DNA from: Nostoc sp. PCC 7120 = FACHB-418
GTDB lineage: Bacteria > Cyanobacteriota > Cyanobacteriia > Cyanobacteriales > Nostocaceae
Assembly: GCF_000009705.1 (NCBI RefSeq)
Contig: NC_003272.1
Span: forward strand, 2,400,001-2,432,000
DNA length: 32,000 nt
Direction of reading: 5' to 3'
The position numbers and the translations under genes were made by a program. Below, piece by piece: positions 13,761 to 29,841 of the stretch; the first letter of the stretch is position 1; each line of letters opens with the position of its first letter. Below the pieces are notes generated by a model that saw nothing but the letters and a program-made list of their open reading frames with translations, was not told where the DNA came from and searched no databases.

Positions 13761-16619
13761 TCAAGCCATTTGTCGAGCCATCAACTGAGCAAAAATCCCT
13801 TCAGTATTTGCTAACTCTTGAAAAGTTCCCTGTTGTACTACCCGGCCTGCTTGTAATACATAGATGCGGTGAGCGTTGCGAATTGTGCTTAGTCGATGAG
13901 CGATCGCAATTCTGGTAACCTGTAATTTATCTAGACTTTCACTGACTATTGCTTGGGTTCTGTTGTCGAGGGCGCTGGTAGCTTCATCAAATAACAAAAT
14001 TCGGGGCTTTAATGCTAAGGCGCGAGCAATCAGCAATCGCTGTCTTTGTCCTCCAGACAGATTACCACCGCCTTCGCTGACTACCGTGTGCATTTGCATA
14101 GGCATGGCGGTAACATCTTCAGCAAAACCAGACATCCGCGCTGCTTCCCAGGCTTCATCTAGGGTAATCTGTGCGTCACCAGCGATATTCTCAAAAATGG
14201 AAGCTGAATTTAGCTGACCATTTTGTAACACAACACCTAACTGTCGCCTGACTGCATCCACATCTAAGCCGGAAAGGTCTTGACCATCGTAATGGATGCT
14301 GCCGGCTTGGGGTGTTTCAAATCCCAGTAGTAGCCGCAGCAGAGTTGATTTACCGCTTCCAGAACTACCTACTAGAGCAATAAATTCTCCTGGTTCAGCA
14401 GAGATACTGACATTATCCAGGGTTAAGTTGCCATCACGACGATAACAAAAAGTTACATTATCTACAGTAATTTTACCTGCCAGCCTGCCAGGGTCAGATT
14501 TGCTGAGATTCACTTCTGGTATGGTGGTTAAAATTGGCTGTGTGCGTTGCCACTGGGGAAGAATTTGTAAAATTTGGGTAACTGTATTGCTGAGGTTTGT
14601 GGTTCCTCTGGTGAAGTTGCTAAAGGCTGTGTTAAAGGCGAGAAAAGTCCCAAGGGAAAAGGCGATACTTCCGGAAGTTTGAGCTTCTTCTAAGAGCTTG
14701 GTGGTAAACCAGAATAGGACTCCAGAGGTAATGATGGGGATGATTGTATTGAAGATTACAACAAAATCTTCTACCAATTGGGTGCTGAGTTCTAGCTTGA
14801 TTTGTCGAGTGTAGTTTTTACTCCAAGCGGCGAAGGCGCGTTCTTCAGCCCCGGCAATATGCAGTTTAGAAATGCCGTTGATTAACTGTACTGTTTGCCC
14901 GAAAATATTACCCTGTACTTCTAACAGAGGTCGCACTTTTGATAATAGAAGGATACCAGAGATTGTCGTGATAGCGATCGCCACTACGGCACTAGCAACG
15001 GCAATCAGGGCTAATTTATAGTTGTAATAAAATAACTGTCCTAAGTAAAATAACGCAAATATACTAGTAATAAAATTAATCAGCGTTCTACCGCTAAGTT
15101 GACGACGGATAGCACTGACTGAGGAAATTCGTGAGAGTAAATCCCCTGTGGTGTACTCTCGGAAAAAAGAGACTGGCAAATTGAGTAATCTATCCCACAC
15201 ACCAGCTTGAGTAGAAGCATCACCAGAGGTTTCCATTCGCAGCAAGGCAAAACCTTGAGCCAGTTGAAATAAACCTGCACCTAAAGCTGCAACTAATAAC
15301 CCTAAGCCGATTTGTAATAATAAAGAGCGATCGCTATCGGGGATGGCATTATCTATAATTATTGAAGTGGCATAAGGTGTAATCATCCCCAACAGGGTAA
15401 TGAAAATACCAGTAAATAAAATTTGTAGTAAATCCCACCCGTGTCCTCGGAGGGTAAACTTGACTATATCAATAGCCCTGAGTGCTTTATCGGGTAAAGA
15501 GCGATAAAACATATAAGCCACAGGAGCTAATGTTGCAGCTACACCCTCGTTTACTACCACACGGCTATAGTTAACTGGGTCAAAAATTTCATAACGATTT
15601 CCAGCAGGTAACAGCGCCACTGGTTGATTCTCTTTAGTATAGGCGACTAAAGCACCTGCATCTTTCAGCCACCAATTATCCCGCAACAACACCCGGCGCA
15701 TTCGGATACGTGAAGCCCTGACTATCGCTTCTAATGGTTCCTTCACTCGCTGGAGATTTTCCGAACGCAATGGAGGGCTAATCTTGATACCCATAGCCCT
15801 ACCGACTGCACCAGCAGCCACTAATAAAGGAGTACCTTCTAAGAAAAAGTCACCGTCTTGAGAATTGAGGGTTGATGATAGTTCCCCTAAAGCTTCGGCT
15901 GTGACTCGACGATTCAGGCGTTGACGTTCTTGCAACCTTGTCAGTTCTGCTTGTGCTTCTTGCTCATCTAATAAAGTCACACAAGACAAGATTTGAGTAT
16001 GTAATTGAGATAAACCAGCCAGCAGTATATCTGAATTTTCGTATTCGCTAGTAGTATGAGTTGTTAGTTGCACTCCCCCGACTGGGGTTAACCACATTTT
16101 GTCATTCATGGGGAAGGCTACGTCTGTGGCTAAAATCAATTCCTCAAATCCCAGAAAACAAACATTCCCTTCCTGAAGCTGCACCCAGCAAGTTAAACCT
16201 GCGGCTGGTTGGAAATTTTGACCATTATTTAAGGAAAATCGTTCTTGTCCCTCAGTTTTTACCTGAATTTTGGGTGTGGGAATCTGGCACAATACACTAC
16301 TAAGTTCCATTAACCAATTTTCTATCCAAGCATTAGCTTTCGCTCCTAACCCGCGAAAACATTCTGGATGTAACAGCAGTAACTCAACTTCCCCAATAGG
16401 AACCGCGAGAATTTGGCGTTGCTGATAAACCGTGCCGAAAAGTGCCTCACCTTGGCTAATACTACATAAATAACGACGAGTTCCATCAATCACGCCATCT
16501 TTCACTGTGACTGCAAACAAAGCCATAGAACCAGATTGAACCACCCAAACCCGCGACGGGTCATTGAGTAAAATTGGTTCATTGCCATTAATTATGTAAG
16601 TTTGCCCCTGTAGTTTCAT
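13761..16619 (-). CDS. Bacteriocin-export ABC transporter (permease + ATPase) with an N-terminal cNMP-binding-like domain and a Cys-less C39-like segment; NHLP/Nif11 export subunit 2 type
   Basis: 952 aa. Walker A GSSGSGKST, signature LSGGQRQR, Walker B LLFDEATSALD, and a 6-TM exporter core. N-terminus VWVVQSGSMALFAV...GEALFG is beta-barrel-like. The architecture matches what I recall for TIGR03797-type proteins (needs an HMM check). Confidence 0.9.
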   Translation of the reverse strand: MKLQGQTYIINGNEPILLNDPSRVWVVQSGSMALFAVTVKDGVIDGTRRYLCSISQGEALFGTVYQQRQILAVPIGEVELLLLHPECFRGLGAKANAWIENWLMELSSVLCQIPTPKIQVKTEGQERFSLNNGQNFQPAAGLTCWVQLQEGNVCFLGFEELILATDVAFPMNDKMWLTPVGGVQLTTHTTSEYENSDILLAGLSQLHTQILSCVTLLDEQEAQAELTRLQERQRLNRRVTAEALGELSSTLNSQDGDFFLEGTPLLVAAGAVGRAMGIKISPPLRSENLQRVKEPLEAIVRASRIRMRRVLLRDNWWLKDAGALVAYTKENQPVALLPAGNRYEIFDPVNYSRVVVNEGVAATLAPVAYMFYRSLPDKALRAIDIVKFTLRGHGWDLLQILFTGIFITLLGMITPYATSIIIDNAIPDSDRSLLLQIGLGLLVAALGAGLFQLAQGFALLRMETSGDASTQAGVWDRLLNLPVSFFREYTTGDLLSRISSVSAIRRQLSGRTLINFITSIFALFYLGQLFYYNYKLALIAVASAVVAIAITTISGILLLSKVRPLLEVQGNIFGQTVQLINGISKLHIAGAEERAFAAWSKNYTRQIKLELSTQLVEDFVVIFNTIIPIITSGVLFWFTTKLLEEAQTSGSIAFSLGTFLAFNTAFSNFTRGTTNLSNTVTQILQILPQWQRTQPILTTIPEVNLSKSDPGRLAGKITVDNVTFCYRRDGNLTLDNVSISAEPGEFIALVGSSGSGKSTLLRLLLGFETPQAGSIHYDGQDLSGLDVDAVRRQLGVVLQNGQLNSASIFENIAGDAQITLDEAWEAARMSGFAEDVTAMPMQMHTVVSEGGGNLSGGQRQRLLIARALALKPRILLFDEATSALDNRTQAIVSESLDKLQVTRIAIAHRLSTIRNAHRIYVLQAGRVVQQGTFQELANTEGIFAQLMARQMA

Positions 16620-16818: not shown

Positions 16819-19041
16819 TCATCCTTCCGTCCGAATCAAACGCGAATATGCACCCTCAACTTGCCAAAGTTCTTGGTGCGTACCTTGTTGTACTACTTTC
16901 CCCCGTTCCAGGACAATGATTTGGTCACAGTCGCGGATAGTGCTTAATCGGTGCGCCACGATAATACAGGTACATCCCCGACGGCGGAGATTTTGGTCAA
17001 TGATTTTTTCTGTTTCTGCGTCTAAGGCGCTGGTGGCTTCATCCATAACTAGGATAGAGGGATTATTTACCAACGCACGGGCAATTTCTAACCGTTGTCG
17101 TTGACCACCACTGAGATTAGCAGCACCTTCGATGAGTTCGGCATCATAACCTCCAGACATAGAGAAAATTACATCAGCGATCGCAGCATCTTGGCAAGCC
17201 CTCATGAGGTTTTTATCTGGTACAGTAGTATCCCAAAGGGTTAAATTGTCCCTCACCGTACCGCCAAACAGCAAAATTTCCTGCTCGACCATCGCCACAG
17301 AGTTAGTCAGTAGTTGGAGGGAAATCTCCTCTCTCGGTTGACTATCAAAGTAGATTTCCCCAGTCCAAGGTTGATACAGTCCGCTTACAAGTTTGGCAAT
17401 GGTAGACTTACCAGAACCGCTTCCCCCCACTAACGCCACACGCTGTCCTGGTTTAATTGACAGATTAAAGTTTTCAATTAAAGGCGCTTCCAAGCGGCTA
17501 TAACCAAAAGTGATATTTTTTAACTCCACATATCCTTGCAATTTAGGAAGCGCCTGGAGTGATGAAGACGATGTTTTACCCCCTACTTCCCCCACGGGGT
17601 TATCCAACACATCATCAAGACGAATCAAGTTTCCCTCTAATTCCTGGAGAGTCGTACCAAAGTTGACGAGATTGTTGACGGGTTGCTGAAAACCAGACAT
17701 TAAACCTTGAAAGGCGATGAGCATACCGATACTTAGATGTCCATCCATCACGCGGAAACCACCGACTATCAAGAGCAACATGGCGGAGAGAGCCGATAGC
17801 AGTGTGGGTAAAACTGAGAATGTCTGGTTTGTAATTCCTAGTTCCTGTTGGGAATTGAGCGCCTTGGTGTAATAACCAGACCATCGAGAAAAGAAATCAG
17901 ACTCTAACCCTGATGCTTTGAGTGTTTCTATACTTTGTAATGTAGCGATAGATATACCCGCCGCCTTCCCATATTCTTGAATTAATCGTTGATTAGCATC
18001 TATCCGTTGACGAGAAATCCATTGCAAAGTTAAGACGTTCACGGCGGCAAAACTGACCACCATCAAGGTAAGTACCCAGTCATACTGCACCATCACCAAA
18101 GCATAAAAAAGCACCATCAATGTGTCAATGATGGTTGTTGCTAACTGTCCAGCCAGAACATCGGCTACTTGGTCATTTAGGGTAGTGCGATTACTGATTT
18201 CCCCAGCAAATCTTTGAGCATAAAAGCTCACTGGTAGGCGGAGAATATGCCAGAGGAAACGGCTAGACATACCCACAGCTAGTCTAATTTTGAGTCGGCG
18301 TAGGTAGCGTAGTCGTAGTAATGTGAGTGATCCTTGCAGTATAGCAGCGATCGCCATTGCCAAAAGTAGAGGGTGCAGCCATAACATTCGTCCCTGCACC
18401 AAGATATCATCGACAAATATTTGACTAAATACGGGGATTACCAACCCAATAATCGTCAAGAAAAATCCTGCCACGATGCAGTAAACTAAAGCACTCTCAG
18501 CCCCCTGTAACCGTGACCACAAAGATGCAATCATGCTGGGTTTGCGACCACCTTTTTGGAACTCTGCGCCTGGTTCCATCACCAGTACTATTCCGGTATA
18601 TCCCTCGTCAAATTCTTGTAACGATACATGACGCGGCCCCGTAGCGGGGTCATTGATATAAACCTGATGTTTACCAAATCCCTCTACCACAACAAAATGG
18701 TTAAAGTTCCAAAAGACAATATAAGGAGGGCGTAATTGTTGTACTTGCTTCAGTTCTTTTTTAAAACCTTTAGCTTCTAGTCCATAAGTTCTGGCAGCTT
18801 TCACCATATTAGATGCCTTGCTGCCATCGCGGGAAACTCCGCAGTCTCGCCGCAGTTGTGGCAATGGTACAACTCGACCGTAGTAACCAAGAATAATTCC
18901 CAAAGCAGCCGCACCACATTCTACCGCTTCCATTTGTAGCAGCGTGGGCGTTTTCACTCGCAGCCTTCTAGGTGGTAGTATTTTTTTTACATACTGCCAA
19001 GGATTAACCAGTGTTACTACGGTAGATTTAGTAGATACCAC
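16819..19041 (-). CDS. Peptidase-C39-domain ABC transporter (double-glycine leader cleavage and export); NHLP/Nif11 export subunit 1 type
   Basis: 740 aa. C39 residues are in context: LLQMEAVECGAAALG (Gln/Cys), NFNHFVVV (His), INDPA (Asp). Walker A GGSGSGKST, LSGGQRQR, ILVMDEATSALD. The GTG start at 19041 overlaps the HlyD stop by 14 nt; the next Met would delete the catalytic Cys. Confidence 0.92.
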   Translation of the reverse strand: MVSTKSTVVTLVNPWQYVKKILPPRRLRVKTPTLLQMEAVECGAAALGIILGYYGRVVPLPQLRRDCGVSRDGSKASNMVKAARTYGLEAKGFKKELKQVQQLRPPYIVFWNFNHFVVVEGFGKHQVYINDPATGPRHVSLQEFDEGYTGIVLVMEPGAEFQKGGRKPSMIASLWSRLQGAESALVYCIVAGFFLTIIGLVIPVFSQIFVDDILVQGRMLWLHPLLLAMAIAAILQGSLTLLRLRYLRRLKIRLAVGMSSRFLWHILRLPVSFYAQRFAGEISNRTTLNDQVADVLAGQLATTIIDTLMVLFYALVMVQYDWVLTLMVVSFAAVNVLTLQWISRQRIDANQRLIQEYGKAAGISIATLQSIETLKASGLESDFFSRWSGYYTKALNSQQELGITNQTFSVLPTLLSALSAMLLLIVGGFRVMDGHLSIGMLIAFQGLMSGFQQPVNNLVNFGTTLQELEGNLIRLDDVLDNPVGEVGGKTSSSSLQALPKLQGYVELKNITFGYSRLEAPLIENFNLSIKPGQRVALVGGSGSGKSTIAKLVSGLYQPWTGEIYFDSQPREEISLQLLTNSVAMVEQEILLFGGTVRDNLTLWDTTVPDKNLMRACQDAAIADVIFSMSGGYDAELIEGAANLSGGQRQRLEIARALVNNPSILVMDEATSALDAETEKIIDQNLRRRGCTCIIVAHRLSTIRDCDQIIVLERGKVVQQGTHQELWQVEGAYSRLIRTEG

Positions 19042-20527
19042 TGGCAGACCTCAAGATTGGTAAAACAAAGGTGATGGGAGCGCGTTCTTCTACCTTGACC
19101 CGCACAACGGTAGTAGTTCCAGAAGAAATATTCAGGTGCGGCCCCGTGGAAGAAGACCACTTGTAACCGCTTGGTGTGTTGGCATCTAATTCTAAGTGAG
19201 AGAATACTTGTATTAATCCTTGCTGTTGAGATACTAAACCTTCCAGCACCTCAGAATTACCGACTTCATTAGCAGCCGCTTCCTTGGTAATCGGGAAGCG
19301 AGAAATGCTGGTGACATTACCCACAATCCCCCCAAAGCGTTCCCGCTTCACCGTTTGGGGAGTAATTTGGATAGACATCCCTGGCTGAATTTTCTTACCC
19401 TCCGCCACAGGAAAATAGGTAACACCAACCAACTTACTCTGGGGATTTTCCGCCTCTATGGTAGCTAACCGTGTACCTGCGTTAACAACTTGCCCTGGTG
19501 TCAAGGTAATTTCTAAAATGCGTCCGCTATGTTGACTAATAATCTGGCTATTATCACTCAGTTGCAGTTCTAGAGAGCCAATCTCTCGCTTCACCTCTTG
19601 AATTTCTTTATTTCTCGCCGTGACATTTTCTAAATCTTGTTGAGCCACGGAAGCCTGTTGACTATCTAATTGTTTCAACTGTGACTGCAAGTCAGCCACA
19701 AGTGTCAAATTTTCCCGATAATCTTTTTCTTGTTGAGTCTCTTTGACATCAAGTTCTTTTAATTGTGCTTGAATATCAGCAATCTTTTCTAAGTTTTGCA
19801 GATATTCCTGTTCTGCTTTGAGGGCTTCATCACCGGAAATCGCCCCTTCTTTTTGAAATAATTCTTGGCGAATTTTCATCCTCCGTAGAAACACAGCAGT
19901 CAGAGCTTGAGCTTGCTGGAGACGTTGCTGTAAGCCTTGACGTTGCTGATCAACAGAGGTGTTACCTTTGGTTTTGAGTAAAGGTGTAATAGCTTCCAAT
20001 TCCAGTATACGCTGCCGGAGGTACTGACGCTGTTGTTGCTGCGATCGCTCCTCTTGTTCCAACCTCCGCCCTTGTAGTGAGCCAACAGCTTTATCTTGCG
20101 ATTCCAGTTGTGTTAGTTTCCCTCGCTGTTGTTGCAGTTGCTTACGCAGTTCAGCTTGGTCAATTGTCGCCAACACCTGCCCTTTTTTAATCACATCCCC
20201 CACTTTCACATTCAACGCCATGATTTGCCCGGCACTTTTGGATTGTAGGGGTACAACATTGCTAGGGTAAATCAATACACCCCGACCCTCAACGGTGATG
20301 GGAATGCTACCATAAATACTCCAGATAAAAGCAACTCCCACAATAGAACCCAACGCCACAAGAGGTAGCCAGCTTTTAGGACTGACTACCTGCATCAGTT
20401 GGTCTAATCTTTCAGGAGAAGATAGACGCTCTAAGGATTCTTTGCGGAATATACTGCCTTTTTTTGTAGCATTAGTTTGGTAACAAAACCTTCTCACTAG
20501 ATTTACTATTGTGGCGACGGAACTCAT
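19028..20527 (-). CDS. HlyD-family membrane fusion/secretion protein
   Basis: N-terminal FRKESLERLSSPERLDQLM + TM (WLPLVALGSIVGVAFIW), lipoyl-like GQIMALNVKVGDVIKKGQVLATID, a long Gln-rich coiled coil, and C-terminal GRILEITLTPGQVVNAGTRLATIE. The first ATG is at 20527 (the track starts at a TTG at 20536). It overlaps the 3' end of the upstream rSAM gene by about 56 nt. Confidence 0.9.
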   Translation of the reverse strand: MSSVATIVNLVRRFCYQTNATKKGSIFRKESLERLSSPERLDQLMQVVSPKSWLPLVALGSIVGVAFIWSIYGSIPITVEGRGVLIYPSNVVPLQSKSAGQIMALNVKVGDVIKKGQVLATIDQAELRKQLQQQRGKLTQLESQDKAVGSLQGRRLEQEERSQQQQRQYLRQRILELEAITPLLKTKGNTSVDQQRQGLQQRLQQAQALTAVFLRRMKIRQELFQKEGAISGDEALKAEQEYLQNLEKIADIQAQLKELDVKETQQEKDYRENLTLVADLQSQLKQLDSQQASVAQQDLENVTARNKEIQEVKREIGSLELQLSDNSQIISQHSGRILEITLTPGQVVNAGTRLATIEAENPQSKLVGVTYFPVAEGKKIQPGMSIQITPQTVKRERFGGIVGNVTSISRFPITKEAAANEVGNSEVLEGLVSQQQGLIQVFSHLELDANTPSGYKWSSSTGPHLNISSGTTTVVRVKVEERAPITFVLPILRSASGIY

Positions 20528-22502
20528 GAAGATCAATATAGCCAGCAGGTAATTCTGAAACTGATAGATAAGGTGAACAAGACCCCTTTAATGCTAAACT
20601 GAGTAGTCTGCCATCGATATCTAACAAAATCTTACGCTCTCGTAACTCAGATACAATGGGGAATATTTCATCCCAGGATACCGGAACGTCAAGCTTTTTA
20701 TTAATTTCTGACACTACTTCTCGATAAGTCAAAGCGCGATCGCAAACTTTATAAACCCAATAAGCCAATCCTTCTAGAAACAATAGACTTTCGGTAGCGC
20801 ATGGTCTACTATCATAAATTGTAATTAAGCTACCACTATCATTCATGCTCAAAATTGGTAAATACTCTGGTTTATGTTCCTTGTAGTACAAAGACTGCCA
20901 TAAACGATTCCATTGGTTTACCCAGAGTTTCAAGTTTTCTAACCCTGGACGCTCTGTTTTTTCACTTGTTTGTTCATTTTCTTCTGTTGCATAACGAGTA
21001 ACCAAATTGTTTTGGTCTTCAAAAAAGTAGGCAAGTTCACTAAGTATTTCTGGCGCAAGTGGATATACGTATTTATAAGGGCGCAAAGGAGACAAGTTTA
21101 AACCCCAGTCCGATGGTCGCTCATAGTAAGGACTAAATCGGTCATAACGAATCTCTGATGCACCGCTTGGTGGTTGGAGATGAGCAATTAAAGGTAGCCA
21201 TTCCATCATCTCCACATACCACTCATCTGACTCCCCTGGAAAGTCCGCAAGTATATTCCAAAATACAATAATTCCTAATTCTCTAGCCCATTTCAATAAC
21301 TGCACATTCATCCAGGCTGTGTTACCTTTGTTCATCAGTTTTAAAATGGAGTTGTGCATACTTTCGATGCCTGGTTGGATGCAACGAACACCAGCTTGTG
21401 CCAATTGTTGCAGATGTTCCCACCTTAAGTTAGCTTTCGTTTCATAAAAAATATTGTAAGCTTCATCTCCAGCAGCAAGAACCGGAATAACCGTATTCAT
21501 GTGATTCATATCTAGGATATTATCGACCACCTGAAATTTACGCAGTCCATAACGTTCACATAGCTGGGTAAACTCTTTCAGCACACGATCAGGAGATTTA
21601 GAACGGTAATTTATACCACTTCCGTTCAATCCACAAAAAGTGCAATGATGTTTTTGCCCCCACCAACATCCACGAGAGGTTTCAATCAAAAGTCCAGGTT
21701 GAATGTAGGGCGAAAGTGTAGAAGCATGGAGGGTTTGAAAGTAATCATCGTAGTCAGGAATTGGTACTTGATCTAAGTTCTGTACGGAAGCTCTTGGCGC
21801 GGCTATGCTGATTTTGGTAGAAGTCCGATGAGATGGACTAATTACACCATAAGGCAATATTGATGGATCAACCTCTCGACCACCATCCAAAAGCTGATAG
21901 CAAAACTCATTAAATAAATCGTCACCCTCTCCCGAAATGATAAAATCTACCCAAGAAAAATGTGTGTGAGTAGCTAACCCCATAGCCCCTTCACAGTTAG
22001 CACCTCCCATAAAAGTAATAATTTCCGGGGCTAACTCTCGTACACGTTTCAAGAGAGCAAGTGAAGCACAATGCTGCTGAAATGTAGAACTACAGCCAAT
22101 AATACGGGGTTGTAAATTGGCTACAGACTGAGCAACACTTTCAATAAATGCTGTAGCCTGCTCACGTACTGCCAAAAATGCTTCTTTCAGGTTCCTATCA
22201 GGCAAATAATTCTCGTAGCTTTTGAAACATGGAGAAATAAGATCGAAATACTCTGAATGGTTAGGATTAAATTCAGGAAATAACACTCCAGAAAATGTCC
22301 ATTCACCCAAGAACGTTTCAATAAAATTCTCACTAATCATAGCATATACATCAAGGCCTATTTCTTCTGCAAACTGGATATTTGGGTATAAAATTGTTGG
22401 TTCAAGCTTTGCTTGTTGTAGACGAGCCTTTAATAAACCAAGAGCAATTGATGGTCTTTCAACTGCTGCATAAGGCATTAATACTAAACATACATCACTC
22501 AT
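20472..22502 (-). CDS. B12-binding-domain radical SAM RiPP maturase (candidate C-methyltransferase, TIGR03975-like from memory)
   Basis: 676 aa. N-terminal Rossmann-like B12 domain pattern (VCLVLMPYAAVERPSIALGLLKA, IIGCSSTFQQHCASLALL, FMGGANCEG). The cluster motif SRGCWWGQKHHCTFCGLNG has C-x7-C-x2-C spacing. Confidence 0.85.
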   Translation of the reverse strand: MSDVCLVLMPYAAVERPSIALGLLKARLQQAKLEPTILYPNIQFAEEIGLDVYAMISENFIETFLGEWTFSGVLFPEFNPNHSEYFDLISPCFKSYENYLPDRNLKEAFLAVREQATAFIESVAQSVANLQPRIIGCSSTFQQHCASLALLKRVRELAPEIITFMGGANCEGAMGLATHTHFSWVDFIISGEGDDLFNEFCYQLLDGGREVDPSILPYGVISPSHRTSTKISIAAPRASVQNLDQVPIPDYDDYFQTLHASTLSPYIQPGLLIETSRGCWWGQKHHCTFCGLNGSGINYRSKSPDRVLKEFTQLCERYGLRKFQVVDNILDMNHMNTVIPVLAAGDEAYNIFYETKANLRWEHLQQLAQAGVRCIQPGIESMHNSILKLMNKGNTAWMNVQLLKWARELGIIVFWNILADFPGESDEWYVEMMEWLPLIAHLQPPSGASEIRYDRFSPYYERPSDWGLNLSPLRPYKYVYPLAPEILSELAYFFEDQNNLVTRYATEENEQTSEKTERPGLENLKLWVNQWNRLWQSLYYKEHKPEYLPILSMNDSGSLITIYDSRPCATESLLFLEGLAYWVYKVCDRALTYREVVSEINKKLDVPVSWDEIFPIVSELRERKILLDIDGRLLSLALKGSCSPYLSVSELPAGYIDLHEFRRHNSKSSEKVLLPN

Positions 22503-22615: not shown

Positions 22616-22909
22616 TTAAAACTTAACTTTAACCGTAACTGAAACTTCGCCACTAATTCTACCACCTGCTACTGACTCTAGCTCTGCTTCAGATAATGTA
22701 TCTTGCTCAGAATTTGGTAACGCCTGCAAAGATAAATTTCCTGGAGTAGTTTCCACCAAATTAACATCAATACTGGATGGAAGATTAATTCCCTCTTTTT
22801 CCAGAGTAGACCGAGGATTAGATACTAAAGCCTGCTTAAAAGACTCATCTTGCCCAGCTTTTACTATAATTTTTTCTTCGAGTTCTTTCCATGTCATTAC
22901 TAGACTCAT
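22616..22909 (-). CDS. NHLP-leader RiPP precursor 1; predicted core RISGEVSVTVKVKF
   Basis: 97 aa. The nitrile-hydratase-like leader pattern WKELEEKIIVKAGQDESFKQALVSNPRSTLEKEGINLP...LSEAELESVAGG ends in a double glycine. AAGGAG Shine-Dalgarno sequence upstream of the ATG at 22909. The core is 22619-22660. Confidence 0.9.
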   Translation of the reverse strand: MSLVMTWKELEEKIIVKAGQDESFKQALVSNPRSTLEKEGINLPSSIDVNLVETTPGNLSLQALPNSEQDTLSEAELESVAGGRISGEVSVTVKVKF

Positions 22910-23194: not shown

Positions 23195-26100
23195 TTACTG
23201 CCATAACAATATTGAAGGTAGTAAGTCTGGACATGATAATCTCAATAGCTCATAGCCAATACCAGCTATTCCTTGACAAAAACCAAAACTATATACGTCG
23301 GCTGGTAAATGAGGAAGAAGTTGAAAATAACCAATCTGGTTTGCTCTAGACAAAACTTGAGTTGCTCGATTATTTGCTGTTTCTAGTAATTCTGGGTGTG
23401 AAAGTTGCTTAGATGCAACTAATAACATTTCTATATGACTAAAATTGCCACAGCAGATGTTATCTAAAACCTGTAAACTTGAGTGATGTATTGTATGTAA
23501 ATTTATATCTAATTCTTGACGAATTTCATCTGTATCGAGGATGTTTAAAGTTCCTAACCGAGCCACAGAAATACCAATTAGCCCAGAACACCATTCAGTT
23601 GTAGATGAGAGTAAGCTATTGTCAATGCTAACTAAATCCAAGTCTTGGCAATTGCTGCTTAACGAGAATAAACGTTGTTCTAAAGTAATAGCTTCTCGAG
23701 CTGCTGATGCAAAGATTGGCTCATCAGTAGCTGCATATAATTGAAGCAGTGCATAGGCAATACCCGCAGCACCATGAGAAAATCCTAGTAGTACCTTGCC
23801 TTCAGCATTAGTCCAGGCTTGATAGACTTCATCTACGGTTACACGAGTATCTAGTAAATAATTGCCCCAGCTAATAGCCTGCTGTAAAGTAGCAGGTTCT
23901 TTTGTAGCTTTGTACAAAGCTAATAAGCTAAGAATTGTACCAGCAACACCAGTCATTACTCCAGGTGCTTGATTAACGGTCGCTTCATTTATTACCATCA
24001 AAGAAGCTAGTTGTTGAGCATCCTGAATCAGCTCTACTTCGCCGAGAAACTCACTAATACGAACTAGGGCATAAACAATAGAAGCTAATCCTGTAGCACC
24101 ACCAATACCCATTTGTCCAATTAGCTTTTGCTGAAGGTCAATATGTGGATCTTGTAAAGTTTTGCGTAGGGACTGTAAAGATGCTAAGGATAATTCACCA
24201 AATTCTGCTCGATTCGTAACAGACGCTAGTGCTGCTAAAAATAAAGATATGCCACAACAACCATCATATAAACTATTGCCTACTGGCTGTAATTGAAACC
24301 TTTGCGCCTCAAACAAGTATCCCATCCCAATCCAGGTAACACTATTGTCCTTTCCGCGAATAGCTTGCTGCTCTAGTTGTTGAGCGATGGCGATCGCCTG
24401 CTGTAACATACCTCGTCTTTCTATGGGGGCAACTATGTCCATGTACAGGTTAGGATTCTCTAATGGTAAAGAATTTAGTTGTTCATTAGTCAGACATGAG
24501 TAAAGTGAACCTCTAATCAGGCTAATCTGCTTCGCTAAATCTGCATCATCCATCTGTCGCAGATGGGCAATAACATCGTCATAACTAGAACTACTCAAAA
24601 ATTTATTGATAGTTTGCTCTGAACTAATATCTATTACATTACTATCTGAATATGCCGTGAAATAAGGAATATCTAACTGTTCTAAAGCTTGCTTTTCTGC
24701 TGCTAATAATGGCCATAAAGGATGTTTATCTTCTGAAGAGAGAAATGCTCTGCTTAGTAAGTCTAACTGAATACTATGTTCTACTCCAGTTCGCAAGCAT
24801 TTATGATTTAAAGAGTTCTGCAAAATAGAAGCGTAAACAGTAGTATTGCGAATTACAAGCCGTACTTTCTGGTTGCTAAATGCCGTTATTGGACTATCAC
24901 TTGCTAACAGTTCTTCTTTTCTTTGTTGCAAGAACTGGTACATCTGCCGAAATCCATCTATGAGTTCTTTGCTGTGGTTATTCAGCGAGGTATCAATATT
25001 CTCACCAAAAGGTCGATTTTTTTTTGGTAGTAATTTAGTGTACTCGCGTACAATAACCATGCTATCTGTATTAATGTGCTTCCATTTCATTGCTCGGTAA
25101 GGCATCTCTTGTTCACCAAAACCTCCCAATCCACTGAAGTCTAACTTCAGTATCTCAGTTTGCTCATAAGGCAAAATTTGCCATCCTGGTAAGAAACCAG
25201 TACCAACAACAGAATCTTGTAAACATTCATTTGCTATAGATTTAGCATCAGCATCATCTTTACTTAACCAAGTACGGTGATGTAAAAGTGTCTCTAAATC
25301 TACAAGAACTGGCTGATCTCCACAAGCAATTAAGTTTTCACAATGACAGTCGTTCCCTTTTAAGAGGTACACAATACACAGCACCATACCGGCACGCTGA
25401 TAATAGTGTTTCACTGCGTCTTGATCTTGACATGGCAAAGCTTCAGCGAACTCCATCCAACCGTAGTTAGAGCAATTAATTATCTTCAGCAGCTTCAGGG
25501 GCAAGTTAATTTTTTGTTGATTAATCCAATCTAAAAAATCAAAATAAGCCTTTTCTAAGCCTAAGCTTTTAGGTTTGTAAACTAGCTTGAAACCTGAAGC
25601 AAACTTAATCACAATTACAGCACGGCCACGATTATGAAAATCAGACATTGCTAATTGAACACTAACAACTTGCCCTAATTTTTGCTCTGGCTGAAAAGTC
25701 AACTGAATTTTATCCGAGTCTGATGCCAATCTTGAGAGAAATTCTCCAGTCGCTTCTACCCAGAAGTCTACAGATGTTGCTATCAATCTAGCTAATACAC
25801 TGTACTCTTGGAAGAAAGACAGTAGTCCGTCTTTAAGTAATTTGTTAACAAAATCTGTGTACTGCTGCTTAGAACAATTACTTTGCAACTGATTAATAAA
25901 ACGAACTAAGGGAGAACTTTTTAAAGAGCGAAAAATTGAGAACTCCAGTTCCAAAGGAGAGATGCAAATACCAGTCAAATGCTCCAGGAGACTTCGTTCC
26001 ATTTGAATATGAGCATTTTGTGATAATAAATAATAGCTAGATCCAGCAGACTCAATTAATTTTTTTTTAGCAACATCAACAAATGGTACCAGAATTTCTT

Positions 26101-26488
26101 CAAACGGAAACGGACGTTCAGGATCTAAATACCGATGCTGCTGTAAGAATTTGTTGTTTGAATTTTCTGGAATAACAAAAGTAGCAACTTGCATTCCTGC
26201 TTTTAAAGTTTCCACCCAGTTGGGTAGATATTTTTCATCAGCTAGATTAACATTACCTAAAACACAGCTAATAGTATTAGTATCTAAGCCATCCCACAAT
26301 AAACGCTTTTCAAAATTATGTTGATTTCCTTTAGCGATAAATTGATACCATTTTTCTAATTTAGCATTATTTTGATTTGCATTTATTTGACGGTCATTGA
26401 AAATAAAACTACTACTAAGACGTTCAGAAATATTACTAGAACGCTCTATTATTTTAATTAAAGATTGCTTAGAAACGTTCATAATCAA
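23195..26488 (-). CDS. lanM: Class II lanthipeptide synthetase (LanM), ProcM-like CCG subtype
   Basis: 1097 aa. Dehydratase/kinase-like motifs DFHNRGRAVIVIKF..KLVYKPKSL and GNDCHCENLIACGDQPVLVDLETLL. C-terminal LanC-like motifs GFSHGAAGIAYAL, EWCSGLIGI and NICCGNFSH (the CCG codons are at 23447-23455). Confidence 0.95.
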   Translation of the reverse strand: MIMNVSKQSLIKIIERSSNISERLSSSFIFNDRQINANQNNAKLEKWYQFIAKGNQHNFEKRLLWDGLDTNTISCVLGNVNLADEKYLPNWVETLKAGMQVATFVIPENSNNKFLQQHRYLDPERPFPFEEILVPFVDVAKKKLIESAGSSYYLLSQNAHIQMERSLLEHLTGICISPLELEFSIFRSLKSSPLVRFINQLQSNCSKQQYTDFVNKLLKDGLLSFFQEYSVLARLIATSVDFWVEATGEFLSRLASDSDKIQLTFQPEQKLGQVVSVQLAMSDFHNRGRAVIVIKFASGFKLVYKPKSLGLEKAYFDFLDWINQQKINLPLKLLKIINCSNYGWMEFAEALPCQDQDAVKHYYQRAGMVLCIVYLLKGNDCHCENLIACGDQPVLVDLETLLHHRTWLSKDDADAKSIANECLQDSVVGTGFLPGWQILPYEQTEILKLDFSGLGGFGEQEMPYRAMKWKHINTDSMVIVREYTKLLPKKNRPFGENIDTSLNNHSKELIDGFRQMYQFLQQRKEELLASDSPITAFSNQKVRLVIRNTTVYASILQNSLNHKCLRTGVEHSIQLDLLSRAFLSSEDKHPLWPLLAAEKQALEQLDIPYFTAYSDSNVIDISSEQTINKFLSSSSYDDVIAHLRQMDDADLAKQISLIRGSLYSCLTNEQLNSLPLENPNLYMDIVAPIERRGMLQQAIAIAQQLEQQAIRGKDNSVTWIGMGYLFEAQRFQLQPVGNSLYDGCCGISLFLAALASVTNRAEFGELSLASLQSLRKTLQDPHIDLQQKLIGQMGIGGATGLASIVYALVRISEFLGEVELIQDAQQLASLMVINEATVNQAPGVMTGVAGTILSLLALYKATKEPATLQQAISWGNYLLDTRVTVDEVYQAWTNAEGKVLLGFSHGAAGIAYALLQLYAATDEPIFASAAREAITLEQRLFSLSSNCQDLDLVSIDNSLLSSTTEWCSGLIGISVARLGTLNILDTDEIRQELDINLHTIHHSSLQVLDNICCGNFSHIEMLLVASKQLSHPELLETANNRATQVLSRANQIGYFQLLPHLPADVYSFGFCQGIAGIGYELLRLSCPDLLPSILLWQ

Positions 26489-26561
26489 TTTAAAATAATT
26501 AATTTATTACTTTTTATGAAAAACCTCTCCGGTTTCATTGTAAATGTTTTAATGATTTGTA

Positions 26562-26714
26562 TTATTTAGGACTTGGAAAAAAGAATTTATAGATTTCGGC
26601 ACCAAAATCTTTTCCCTGATCATAAAGCATTGCTCCATTTAAAATAACAACAATCACAAAAATGCTTATGATTACGAATTTAATAATAACTTTAGGATCA
26701 TTTAAATTTTGCAT
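26562..26714 (-). CDS. Unannotated 50-aa single-pass membrane ORF; candidate immunity/accessory peptide
   Basis: Below the track's size cutoff. I translated it codon by codon: MQNLNDPKVIIKFVIISIFVIVVILNGAMLYDQGKDFGAEIYKFFFPSPK, with a TAA stop at 26562-26564. It has one hydrophobic helix, and its tail resembles the core of precursor 2. It sits between precursor 2 and lanM on the same strand. Confidence 0.45.
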   Translation of the reverse strand: MQNLNDPKVIIKFVIISIFVIVVILNGAMLYDQGKDFGAEIYKFFFPSPK

Positions 26715-26759
26715 AATAATTTAATGTATTATCCATCGTCCATGATGAGTTTTTTTGCT

Positions 26760-26783
26760 GGTGTAAGAAAAAACTCCTACACC
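26760..26783 (-). other. Weak stem-loop 3' of the NHLP-2 precursor
   Basis: GGTGTAAG (26760-26767) / CCTACACC (26776-26783), 7 of 8 bp, with an 8-nt loop. No U-tract follows on the sense strand. Confidence 0.25.
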
Positions 26784-26848
26784 AACTTGATTTACAGCGA
26801 AGTGTGATTTTTAGAACAATCTATGATCACAGTGTTTTCTGGAGAAAA

Positions 26849-26924
26849 GCTTTGTGTATTTCTTTACCAAAACCTTTTAATCTACAATGGCTTTATATAT
26901 TTCTTTGCCAAAGTCTTTTAATCT
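26849..26924. repeat. Tandem 35-nt direct duplication (period 41) spanning the 3' end of the NHLP-2 core
   Basis: 26849-26883 versus 26890-26924: 30/35 identical by my position-by-position comparison. Copy 1 encodes RLKDFGKEIYKA in frame. Copy 2 is out of frame and contains the gene's TAA stop (26877-26879). Confidence 0.85.
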
Positions 26925-27227
26925 ATCATAAGTTTTCTCAACAAAAGTGAATATATCTCCAAGACTTCCACCGGCAACCGCTTCTAACTGCTCTTCAGAT
27001 AACTCTACATCTTCTAAATTGGGACGTGCAGGAATTACGAAGTAGAAATTGGAATCATTCTCTTCCACTACATGAACATTTATTTCTTCTGGTAATTGAA
27101 TAGCAAATTCTCTTTCAATTACAGCTTTAGAGTTGTTTAATAACTCTTGCCTGTAGGTTTCGTCTTTCCAGGCTTGAACAATTATTTGTGCTTCAATTTC
27201 TTTACGAGTCTTTGTTTGTTCGCTCAT
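26877..27227 (-). CDS. NHLP-leader RiPP precursor 2; predicted core SLGDIFTFVEKTYDRLKDFGKEIYKAIVD
   Basis: 116 aa. The leader RKEIEAQIIVQAWKDETYRQELLNNSKAVIEREFAIQLPEEINVHVVEEN..FVIPARPN..LSEEQLEAVAGG is a near-consensus NHLP leader. The core is 26880-26966. Confidence 0.92.
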   Translation of the reverse strand: MSEQTKTRKEIEAQIIVQAWKDETYRQELLNNSKAVIEREFAIQLPEEINVHVVEENDSNFYFVIPARPNLEDVELSEEQLEAVAGGSLGDIFTFVEKTYDRLKDFGKEIYKAIVD

Positions 27228-27384
27228 TTTGGTTATTTCCTACTTAAACTAATTAAGGGTTTAATTGATTGGTGGACTGATGAATTCAAGAAAAGAATAG
27301 TAAGTTTTATCAGATGTAATACTAGTTTAAGCTTCCATCTGTATGAGACTTACATAATCATGAATTCTTTAATTTTTAGATTGA

Positions 27385-27720
27385 TTATTTTCTAGAATTA
27401 TGTTCTTCAAGAGCGCCATGAGCGATAGGAATTAAAAGGAGCGTAAGTGTCCATAACGCTCCACCAGCAACGGCTTCTAGCTGCTCATCTGATAATTCTA
27501 CATCTTCTAAGTTAGGGCGTGCAGGAATTACAAAATAGAGGTTAGAAGCATTTTCTTCCATGACGTGAACTGTTATTCCCTCTGGTAATTGAACACCAAA
27601 TTCTTGTTCAACTATTTTTTTAGGATTGTTCAGTAATTCCTGTCTGTAAGCTTCATCTTTCCATGCTTGCACAATGATTTGTGCTTCAACATCTTTACGA
27701 GTTTTAGTTTGCTCACTCAT
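27385..27720 (-). CDS. NHLP-leader RiPP precursor 3; predicted core ALWTLTLLLIPIAHGALEEHNSRK
   Basis: 111 aa. The leader is 71/87 identical to that of precursor 2. AGGAGA Shine-Dalgarno sequence upstream. The core is 27388-27459. Confidence 0.92.
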   Translation of the reverse strand: MSEQTKTRKDVEAQIIVQAWKDEAYRQELLNNPKKIVEQEFGVQLPEGITVHVMEENASNLYFVIPARPNLEDVELSDEQLEAVAGGALWTLTLLLIPIAHGALEEHNSRK

Positions 27721-27853: not shown

Positions 27854-28042
27854 TTAATGATTTGTTTTTTGCCAAATAATAGCAGTCAATTCTGCTATAT
27901 CTAAAGCCTGTTTAGCCTTAATTACTTCTCTCAAAAAAGCTCGTTCATCTTCCCAAGCAAACCGAGGTAGGAGAGGTTGAGAAACTAACAGTTCTTCAGA
28001 GGAAATGTTTGCGTCCTGATTTTCTTCGTTTAAATGATTCAT
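27854..28042 (-). CDS. 62-aa acidic/helical hypothetical protein translationally coupled to the rSAM/SPASM gene (possible accessory subunit)
   Basis: Its ATG (28042-28040) overlaps the TGA of the upstream rSAM gene (28041-28039) as ATGA. MNHLNEENQDANISSEELLVSQPLLPRFAWEDERAFLREVIKAKQALDIAELTAIIWQKTNH. No recognisable motif. Confidence 0.5.
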   Translation of the reverse strand: MNHLNEENQDANISSEELLVSQPLLPRFAWEDERAFLREVIKAKQALDIAELTAIIWQKTNH

Positions 28043-29405: not shown

Positions 29406-29729
29406 CTATGAAAGATAATCGCGTGGATCAAGTGGATCAAGAATTACACCGTACAGAGCAACTACACCAGGGAAGATACCTTTGATCCAATGAATAGTTT
29501 TTGTTCCACCAGCGATCGCTGCTAATTCCGCTTCGTTAAGTTCCTCATCAGGGGAACTAGTTTCTAAAATCTCAGCAGTAGCAGTTTCCCATTCTTCTTC
29601 TGTGAAATTATATCCTGTTCCTTGTAAGAAACTTATACGTTCTTCGCTGGAATAACTTTCAATTTGAGTGCGGAAAGTTGGATCTGTTGTGATTCTCTGA
29701 TAAAAAGCTTTTGCGCTTTCAATAGACAT
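29406..29729 (-). CDS. Nif11-leader RiPP precursor; predicted core TKTIHWIKGIFPGVVALYGVILDPLDPRDYLS
   Basis: From the ATG at 29729 (AAGAGG Shine-Dalgarno sequence upstream): MSIESAKAFYQRITTDPTFRTQIES...GYNFTEEEW...ELNEAELAAIAGG, a Nif11-type leader with a double glycine. The core is 29409-29504. The Tyr-Gly codons are at 29448-29453. Confidence 0.88.
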   Translation of the reverse strand: MSIESAKAFYQRITTDPTFRTQIESYSSEERISFLQGTGYNFTEEEWETATAEILETSSPDEELNEAELAAIAGGTKTIHWIKGIFPGVVALYGVILDPLDPRDYLS

Positions 29730-29841
29730 ACAAATACCTCTTATGAATAACAAAAACATTAAAAGAAATAAACTAATAGAACAATGCAGAATTTTTGGAT
29801 AAGACTCTGTTTTTTTTCGTTAGATATTTATTAGGAAAAAT

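Follow-up and report, generated by a model that had tools for sequence, protein, structure and literature searches.

ORF50, a small open reading frame between NHLP-2 and LanM

We analyzed a 32,000-nucleotide (nt) stretch of the genome of Nostoc sp. PCC 7120 (NC_003272.1, positions 2,400,001 to 2,432,000; the window), in which an open reading frame (ORF) of 50 amino acids (aa), here called ORF50, lies between the gene for the peptide precursor NHLP-2 and the gene for a LanM-type class II lanthipeptide synthetase. ORF50 (MQNLNDPKVIIKFVIISIFVIVVILNGAMLYDQGKDFGAEIYKFFFPSPK) is encoded on the minus strand at 26562..26714, from an ATG start to a TAA stop, and is predicted to be a small membrane protein. 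The ORF list and its translation gave exactly the coordinates, strand, and 50-aa sequence assigned by an earlier interpretation made from the DNA alone (the sequence-only reading). On the same strand, the upstream neighbor is NHLP-2 (116 aa, 26877..27227), which matches TIGR03793 leader_NHLP (E 7e-30), has a leader ending in GG, and carries a 29-aa core encoded at 26880-26966. Before it comes NHLP-1 (111 aa, 27385..27720, minus strand; TIGR03793, E 3e-33), with the hydrophobic core ALWTLTLLLIPIAHGALEEHNSRK. Downstream is LanM (1095 aa, 23195..26482, minus strand; DUF4135 and LANC_like domains); it begins 79 nt after the ORF50 stop, so the two are probably co-transcribed.

The sequence-only reading had called ORF50 unannotated, which is correct for the original PCC 7120 record and no longer correct today. 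Haft et al. 2010 (PMC2887384) list consecutive GenInfo identifier (GI) numbers that leave no gene between LanM and NHLP-2 in PCC 7120, so ORF50 was not annotated in that record. The exact protein now occurs on 62 contigs and has entries in NCBI nr and UniRef, and its homologue from Scytonema carries the deposited name “hypothetical protein.” No NCBIfam (0 hits), Pfam, or PDB family was matched by ORF50 or any homologue. Pfam scores in the ORF50 family, such as that of one homologue against Imm17 (E 0.023, 15 bits vs a cutoff of 25), are noise, and PDB profile searches with the ORF50 family and with the NHLP-2 core family returned nothing significant. The ORF50 family is new to the curated libraries searched. 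The literature searched held no description of ORF50 or of core-mimicking immunity proteins; for this cluster it gave genome-mining mentions only, and we found no experimental paper.

Homology of the ORF50 tail to the NHLP-2 core

Residues 31-45 of ORF50, YDQGKDFGAEIYKFF, are identical at 10/15 positions to YDRLKDFGKEIYKAI in the NHLP-2 core (26886-26930), reproducing the match from which the sequence-only reading had started; the third-position codon differences that it named (GAC/GAT, GGC/GGT, ATA/ATC) are also as it described. Over 16 codons, tail and core share 32 of 48 nucleotides. The BLOSUM62 local score of ORF50 against the core is 53, a value reached by none of 20,000 shuffles of the ORF (maximum 47). 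When the six-frame translation of the window was scored against the core, only NHLP-2 itself and an out-of-frame copy of the core exceeded 35 besides ORF50, and the next segment scored 35.

Profile comparison by hhalign aligned the ORF50 family with the NHLP-2 core family at E 6.3e-9 (probability 95.9 %), pairing ORF50 residues 28-49 with core residues 10-29. We also ran the ORF50-family hidden Markov model (HMM) on the six-frame translated loci described below; its ten members, including two distant ones, ranked at the top, and the NHLP-2 precursor of each locus came directly next. The core family (11 sequences) has the consensus ..F.FV..TY.ELKDFG.EIYKA.., and its invariant Y13, K17, G20, and Y24 correspond to the invariant Y31, K35, G38, and Y42 of ORF50. 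Judged by helix geometry, this Y-K-G-Y spacing (i, i+4, i+7, i+11) places the four residues within ~60 degrees on a helical wheel, as one stripe on a helix face with the glycine at its center. Profile alignment thus shows homology between the ORF50 tail and the NHLP-2 core, and the tail carries the motif-bearing helix of that family; the resemblance first seen in a single sequence pair is upheld at the level of families.

Tails (LYQQGK, NSP) and cores (TY.ELKDFG) form separate groups. Core and tail from the same genome were not significantly more alike than pairs across genomes (p = 0.11 for amino acids, p = 0.15 for nucleotides), so there is no signal of co-evolution, and we dropped the idea of gene conversion or co-variation between core and tail. 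Individually suggestive same-genome cases are L015, where both end in GGC, and L021 (YNA). Given the non-significant comparison, the simplest history would be one old duplication after which the same helix face was kept in both contexts, with no call for repeated gene conversion. Extra copies of the NHLP-1, NHLP-3, or Nif11 cores were not found in the window.

ORF50 is conserved as a protein-coding gene

Homologous ORFs were located by an NHLP-2 search and contig look-ups of its full-length homologues, followed by an alignment search. Eight loci, representing at least 6 lineages, have an intact ORF of 50-56 aa at the corresponding place, after the NHLP-2 homologue and before LanM. Outside the window, it directly follows the NHLP-2 homologue in L008 (the nearest variant, 92 % nucleotide identity), L011 (Scytonema sp. 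UIC 10036), L012 (Trichocoleus sp. FACHB-90), L024 (a close relative of the L012 locus), and the metagenomic contigs L018, L013/L014, and L015. The homologues are on the same strand as the NHLP-2 homologue and 10-200 nt ahead of LanM, which comes next wherever it is still present. They share 29-50 % identity with ORF50.

Every pair of ORF50 homologues had a ratio of non-synonymous to synonymous substitution rates (dN/dS) of 0.2-0.47 by the Nei-Gojobori method, with synonymous sites near or at saturation between genera. L008 keeps ORF50 with 4 synonymous and 4 non-synonymous changes, a divergence that would by itself be too small to decide on selection. Shine-Dalgarno-like purine runs lie ~10-15 nt before the ATG in L012, L024, L015, L018, and L011; they read GGAGG or GGAG, and AGAGG in L011. 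The frame of ORF50 relative to NHLP-2 varies among loci, which means that the frame shared in the window is coincidental and that read-through is not involved. On this substitution pattern, ORF50 is a genuine gene under purifying selection at the protein level. The sequence-only reading had claimed protein-level conservation from the codon pairs and had proposed looking for a conserved ORF, frame, and motif in related clusters; the intact ORF and constant anatomy of the 8 loci bear the claim out.

The same comparison addresses a refutation that the sequence-only reading had itself named, disruption in relatives or a mere third copy in decay, in which case ORF50 would be a spurious frame over a remnant of the duplicated core tail. 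A decaying copy does exist 110 nt upstream: an out-of-frame, degenerate tandem copy of the core tail (26827..26883, minus strand; frame-3 translation RLKGFGKEIHKAFLQKTL followed by a stop). It begins within the last NHLP-2 codons and duplicates the last ~36 nt of the core, and the start of the repeat provides the NHLP-2 stop codon. Only the PCC 7120 lineage has this copy, which in L008 is interrupted by an in-frame TGA, and none of the other loci contains it; by its distribution the copy really is a lineage-specific decaying duplicate. ORF50 in the window also has no clear Shine-Dalgarno sequence, which would suit a spurious frame. However, all 8 loci keep the length, N-terminus, transmembrane (TM) segment, and tail of ORF50 although synonymous sites are nearly saturated, dN/dS values are 0.2-0.47, and Shine-Dalgarno-like runs precede the ORF in 5 loci. 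Neither a disrupted frame nor neutral evolution, the marks of a pseudogene or decaying duplicate, was found for ORF50 in relatives. The intact loci and the dN/dS values rule out a decaying third copy, and we regard a spurious frame as highly improbable.

Other searches added no further relatives. A word-indexed protein search with ORF50 alone returned only its own cluster, and tblastn against plasmids gave no match. A pattern scan of metagenome contigs (alignment A6) gave matches, none of which was confirmed as a relative by tblastn, and a degenerate DNA pattern for KDFG.EIYK hit 29 loci in metagenome contigs, all encoding unrelated proteins.

ORF50 has a predicted TM helix and an amphipathic tail

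All cluster members share one anatomy: an N-terminal MxNLxxPK, a TM helix, a break, the motif LY.QGK.FG.E(I/L)Y(K/R), and a short variable end. The break before the tail is N-G-A in the window and N-S-P in most loci, and is absent in some. AlphaFold2, run with a 6-sequence alignment, predicted a helix at residues 7-25, a break at residue 26, and a second helix at residues 27-45, with a mean predicted local distance difference test score (pLDDT) of 86.5. The predicted TM helix (residues 7-25; 26640..26696, minus strand) forms a block with pLDDT >90; residues 9-27 have a mean Eisenberg hydrophobicity of 0.87 and no amphipathic moment, and the hydrophobic segment is kept in all homologues. By prediction, therefore, ORF50 is a small integral membrane protein, in agreement with the single TM helix that had been read from its sequence.

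The predicted C-terminal helix (residues 27-45, motif LYDQGKDFGAEIYKFF; 26580..26636, minus strand) is the segment that hhalign pairs with the core. Its hydrophobic moment, 0.42, was matched or exceeded in 3.5 % of shuffles, and the amphipathic moment is significant for both the ORF50 tail and the NHLP-2 core. Six of the 9 invariant columns of the ORF50 family fall in this tail (L30, Y31, K35, G38, E40, and Y42). Most ORF50 tails also contain a GxxxG motif (QGKDFG, residues 34-38; window 26601-26615), where NHLP-2 cores have LxxxG (RLKDFG). In two-peptide bacteriocins, helix pairing is mediated by GxxxG motifs.

Given the homology of its tail to a bona fide core and its place immediately upstream of LanM, ORF50 might be a leaderless substrate of LanM, or a membrane peptide acting alongside NHLP-1 and NHLP-2. 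Against this, the NHLP leader model (TIGR03793) does not match ORF50, although it detects NHLP-1, NHLP-2, and NHLP-3 at E 3e-29 to 3e-33; ORF50 likewise has no Nif11 leader, and no homologue has a GG cleavage site before the shared motif. The tail has no conserved Ser, Thr, or Cys, and ORF50 is kept in L015, where LanM has been lost. We consider a substrate or partner peptide of this kind very unlikely. ORF50 cannot be counted among the NHLP precursors, as a TM helix stands in place of the NHLP leader and GG site, although it resembles the NHLP-leader precursors (TIGR03793; Haft et al. 2010, PMC2887384) in that the core of one of their families is homologous to its tail.

ORF50 tracks the NHLP-2-type peptide

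LanM relatives in GTDB representative genomes were all at ≤48 % identity (L001-L004) and were used as negative controls only. The ORF50 HMM found no ORF50 in these LanM clusters, which have other cores. In L015, LanM is reduced to a fragment beside a transposase, and NHLP-1, NHLP-2, and ORF50 are intact. Since it is absent from L001-L004 and kept in L015, ORF50 tracks the NHLP-2-type peptide and not LanM. An NHLP-1 core with HGA.EEHN stands directly upstream of NHLP-2 in every ORF50 locus; the longer core motif ..WT.T..IP..HGA.EEHN.. is found there in L008, L011, L012, L013, L018, and L024, and only its HGALEEHN part recurs in L015. From this synteny, the conserved unit is NHLP-1, NHLP-2, and ORF50, usually followed by LanM.

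A different picture was found in L021-23. There the ORF50 HMM finds nothing though an NHLP-2-type precursor persists, LanM is a frameshifted N-terminal remnant, and the NHLP-1 core is without HGALEEHN; the NHLP-2 core of these loci, IYNAGKDFGDTIYDAFH, is the most divergent. A suspected ORF50 remnant, NYNAKNRFGKVVYKYY, was not detected by the family HMM, and we counted ORF50 as absent. The NHLP-1 core is thus a second conserved core family, found in every case together with the NHLP-2-type core and ORF50, and HGALEEHN is missing in the one lineage without ORF50 (L021-23); this pairing suggests a two-peptide system.

An exhaustive HMMER search of 1.84 billion representatives yielded just 5 proteins, 3 of them known cluster members. 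The remaining two, P0055 (E 3e-5) and P0056 (E 7e-4), are distant members with the architecture of ORF50 and the tails YDQLKDFGAALYQFF and WDQLTDFGAEIYRAF. Neither is adjacent to NHLP genes, and both lie outside clusters for peptides that are synthesized ribosomally and then modified post-translationally (RiPPs): P0055 (L027) is an isolated gene preceded by a strong Shine-Dalgarno sequence and flanked by DUF1569 and GH2 genes, on a contig with 45 % guanine-plus-cytosine (GC) content, and P0056 (L029) is on a 686-bp contig of 63 % GC. They could be orphan immunity genes, or could indicate that the ORF50 family has a life of its own.

On the latter interpretation, ORF50 would belong to an independent small membrane protein family with its own housekeeping role, the NHLP-2 core would be a copy of its tail fused to an NHLP leader, and the adjacency of the two genes would reflect history and not functional interaction. 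P0055 and P0056 speak for this, as they have the same architecture outside RiPP contexts, and their tails (YDQLKDFGA, WDQLTDFGAEIY) are equally close to the core consensus and to the cyanobacterial ORFs. But there are only two such members among the 1.84 billion representatives, and orphan immunity genes would give the same picture. Furthermore, adjacency is strict in 8 loci across deep divergence, the motif residues are still invariant in both families, and ORF50 is absent from LanM clusters with other cores. We therefore think an independent origin of this kind unlikely.

A conserved hairpin and the surrounding cluster

Between NHLP-2 and ORF50, RNAfold predicts a 13-bp stem-loop, GTTGGTGTAGGAG TTTT TTCTTACACCAGC (26757..26786, minus strand). 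RNAfold on the intergenic regions gave a strong hairpin in 8/8 loci, each time after the NHLP-2 stop and before the ORF50 start, and the hairpin sequence (TTGGTGTGGG..CCCACACCAA) is conserved in 6 of them (the window, L008, L012, L024, L018, and L015). In L012 and L024, a T-run comes after it. An Rfam search of 26300-27500, hairpin included, matched no family, and a simple terminator scan of the window found none. The hairpin is probably an attenuator or transcript-processing element, with the precursor genes on one side of it and ORF50 and LanM on the other. Attenuators are the usual arrangement between highly expressed precursor genes and downstream machinery.

The module is part of a larger RiPP cluster, all on the minus strand. 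Upstream lie a cyclic nucleotide monophosphate-binding “bacteriocin-type transport-associated” protein (TIGR03896, 29842-30948), a Nif11-leader precursor (29406-29759), a radical SAM/SPASM maturase (TIGR04103, 28039-29340), and a 62-aa ORF (27854-28042) whose start overlaps the maturase stop (ATGA). Downstream of LanM are NHLP-3 (22616-22909), a B12-radical SAM enzyme (20472-22502), HlyD (19028-20536), a C39-peptidase ABC exporter (16819-19041), and a second ABC protein (13761-16619). The arrangement of NHLP, LanM, and transporter genes in PCC 7120 has been described before (Haft et al. 2010, PMC2887384). The 62-aa ORF had no Pfam or NCBIfam match; a similar small ORF follows the radical SAM gene in L005-L008, L011, L012, L015, and L018, and it may encode an accessory or recognition protein for that enzyme.

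Several observations concern LanM and regulation. None of the 4 precursor cores in the window contains Cys, despite a full-length LanM. The LanM homologue of L013/L014 has 664 aa and consists of the DUF4135 dehydratase part only (L013:8645-10639). By analogy with the PoyF-type enzymes of proteusin pathways, LanM in this module probably only dehydrates or phosphorylates Ser/Thr. In a single sequencing run, from a strain otherwise near-identical (L006:6233-9519; Logan SRR34065954), LanM is split into ORFs of 141 aa and 935 aa with ORF50 and the precursors unchanged, which is a frameshift or assembly variant. The flanks of L011, L012, and L015 encode a Nif11-domain dCache/HAMP sensor, AraC-type response regulators, PAS histidine kinases, a ParA-like ATPase, and DUF7005; together with the TIGR03896 protein of the window, the regulators hint that the module is under dedicated signaling control.

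A proposed tethered mimic of the exported peptide

The sequence-only reading had suggested that ORF50 is a self-immunity or decoy protein derived from the toxin core. The parts of this interpretation that stand are a real gene under protein-level selection and a tail homologous to the core; the protective role itself we can put forward only tentatively. Specifically, ORF50 may be a membrane-tethered, non-exported paralogue that protects the producer by competing for the partner of the exported peptide. Its position, size, membrane anchoring, and co-occurrence with NHLP-2-type cores all fit the immunity or decoy idea. In all 8 loci, ORF50 adjoins the structural peptide gene on the same strand, as a small-membrane immunity protein would. 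Two GG-leader genes followed by a small membrane protein gene, with a C39 exporter, is the usual place of the immunity gene in two-peptide bacteriocin operons.

Without a leader or GG site, ORF50 would remain in the membrane of the producer, and the cluster's C39-peptidase ABC transporter would cleave and export NHLP-1 and NHLP-2; cleavage at GG and export by this type of transporter follow Haft et al. 2010 (PMC2887384). The tethered helix would show the same Y-K-G-Y face as the exported NHLP-2 peptide and would occupy whatever that face pairs with in the membrane of the producer itself, the candidate partners being NHLP-1, NHLP-2 itself, or a membrane receptor or target. With its partner occupied, the active peptide complex would be blocked from assembling in the producer, and the net effect would be self-protection by a dominant-negative tethered mimic. 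In this detailed form, with the leaderless paralogue acting as a dominant-negative subunit or decoy through the same Y-K-G-Y face, we regard the mechanism as doubtful. Binding by ORF50, protection by ORF50, and the nature of the NHLP-1 and NHLP-2 products as membrane-active toxins are all points that we infer. The topology would probably be N-in with the tail out; P0055 and P0056, the distant members, favor this orientation by having strongly cationic N-termini.

A number of observations weigh against a protective mimic. Across the TM helix, the charge balance of the cyanobacterial members is ambiguous as to topology. The mature NHLP-2 peptide has a net charge of about -1 and is not cationic, which sets it apart from most membrane-active bacteriocins. 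Among NCBIfam, Pfam, and PDB families, ORF50 belongs to no described immunity family. A clear Shine-Dalgarno sequence is not seen before ORF50 in the window or in L013, and the comparison of same-genome pairs gave no sign that core and tail evolve together. Finally, the two distant members are found away from NHLP genes, and the persistence of an NHLP-2-type core without ORF50 in L021-23 means that ORF50 is not indispensable wherever such a core exists.

ORF50 could instead help the peptides, as a non-exported third component or docking partner (a receptor, a sensor, or an escort for export, assembly, or auto-induction) and not an inhibitor. Synteny, co-occurrence, and the common helix face serve this explanation equally. 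The place of ORF50 after the conserved hairpin and near LanM puts it in the low-expression “machinery” part of the operon, and the sensor kinases, HAMP/dCache proteins with a Nif11 domain, and AraC-type response regulators of related clusters would suit a role in sensing. On the other hand, ORF50 is kept in L015, where LanM is lost, and it has no conserved contact with transporter genes; L013 has no C39 transporter within 8 kb. The present sequence evidence does not tell helping and inhibiting apart, and we consider a docking partner possible, if rather unlikely.

Comparison with known systems

For the protective mimic, class IIb two-peptide operons, such as lactococcin G lagA-lagB-lagC with the C39 ABC exporter LagD, offer the nearest gene arrangement: two adjacent GG-leader genes, then a small membrane protein gene, with a C39-peptidase ABC exporter in the cluster. 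The leaders here are of the NHLP type, however, and LanM, radical SAM, and B12-radical SAM enzymes are present. To our knowledge, class IIb immunity proteins are ~110 aa or Abi/CAAX proteins, and none resembles its own peptides. NHLP-2 scored 16.9 bits against LcnG-beta (PF11632; cutoff 29.4, E 0.007), below the level for membership, and the PDB profile search with the core family returned no lactococcin G chain. The immunity peptides of circular and leaderless bacteriocins, such as As-48D1 and CclI, have ~50 aa and 1-2 TM helices and are like ORF50 in size, membrane location, and place inside a bacteriocin cluster. Whereas ORF50 resembles the neighboring core, we know of no reported sequence similarity between these peptides and the bacteriocins they act against.

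Precedents for the principle come from more distant systems. In phage lambda, the holin S105 and the antiholin S107, made from one gene with two starts, set lysis timing; there a membrane inhibitor near-identical to the effector pairs with it, the mechanism that we propose for ORF50. Here the genes are separate, only a ~20-residue helix is common, and inhibition is a proposal. The yeast killer toxins K1 and K28 owe their immunity to the unprocessed preprotoxin, so that the toxin's own sequence, retained in the producer, protects, as we suggest for ORF50. They differ in being eukaryotic and virus-encoded and in having one polypeptide as both precursor and immunity factor, with no membrane-tethered paralogue. 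Homology of ORF50 to the neighboring core was not reported in the literature searched.

Significance for NHLP systems

Producer self-protection and the roles of the peptides are largely obscure for the many NHLP/Nif11-leader peptides of cyanobacteria. The finding defines a conserved four-gene module (NHLP-1, NHLP-2, ORF50, and LanM) and illustrates how ORFs of ≤50 aa within biosynthetic clusters are overlooked by older annotations. It also provides a concrete hypothesis, in which one helix face is common to an exported peptide and a membrane-anchored copy, that is approachable in the genetically tractable PCC 7120. If true, this would amount to a way of achieving immunity that is not known to have been described in NHLP, lanthipeptide, or class II bacteriocin systems. 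Should the mimic prove to protect the producer, leaderless, TM-anchored core copies downstream of precursor genes would offer a general route to immunity genes, and searches for them would flag which cryptic RiPPs are toxins.

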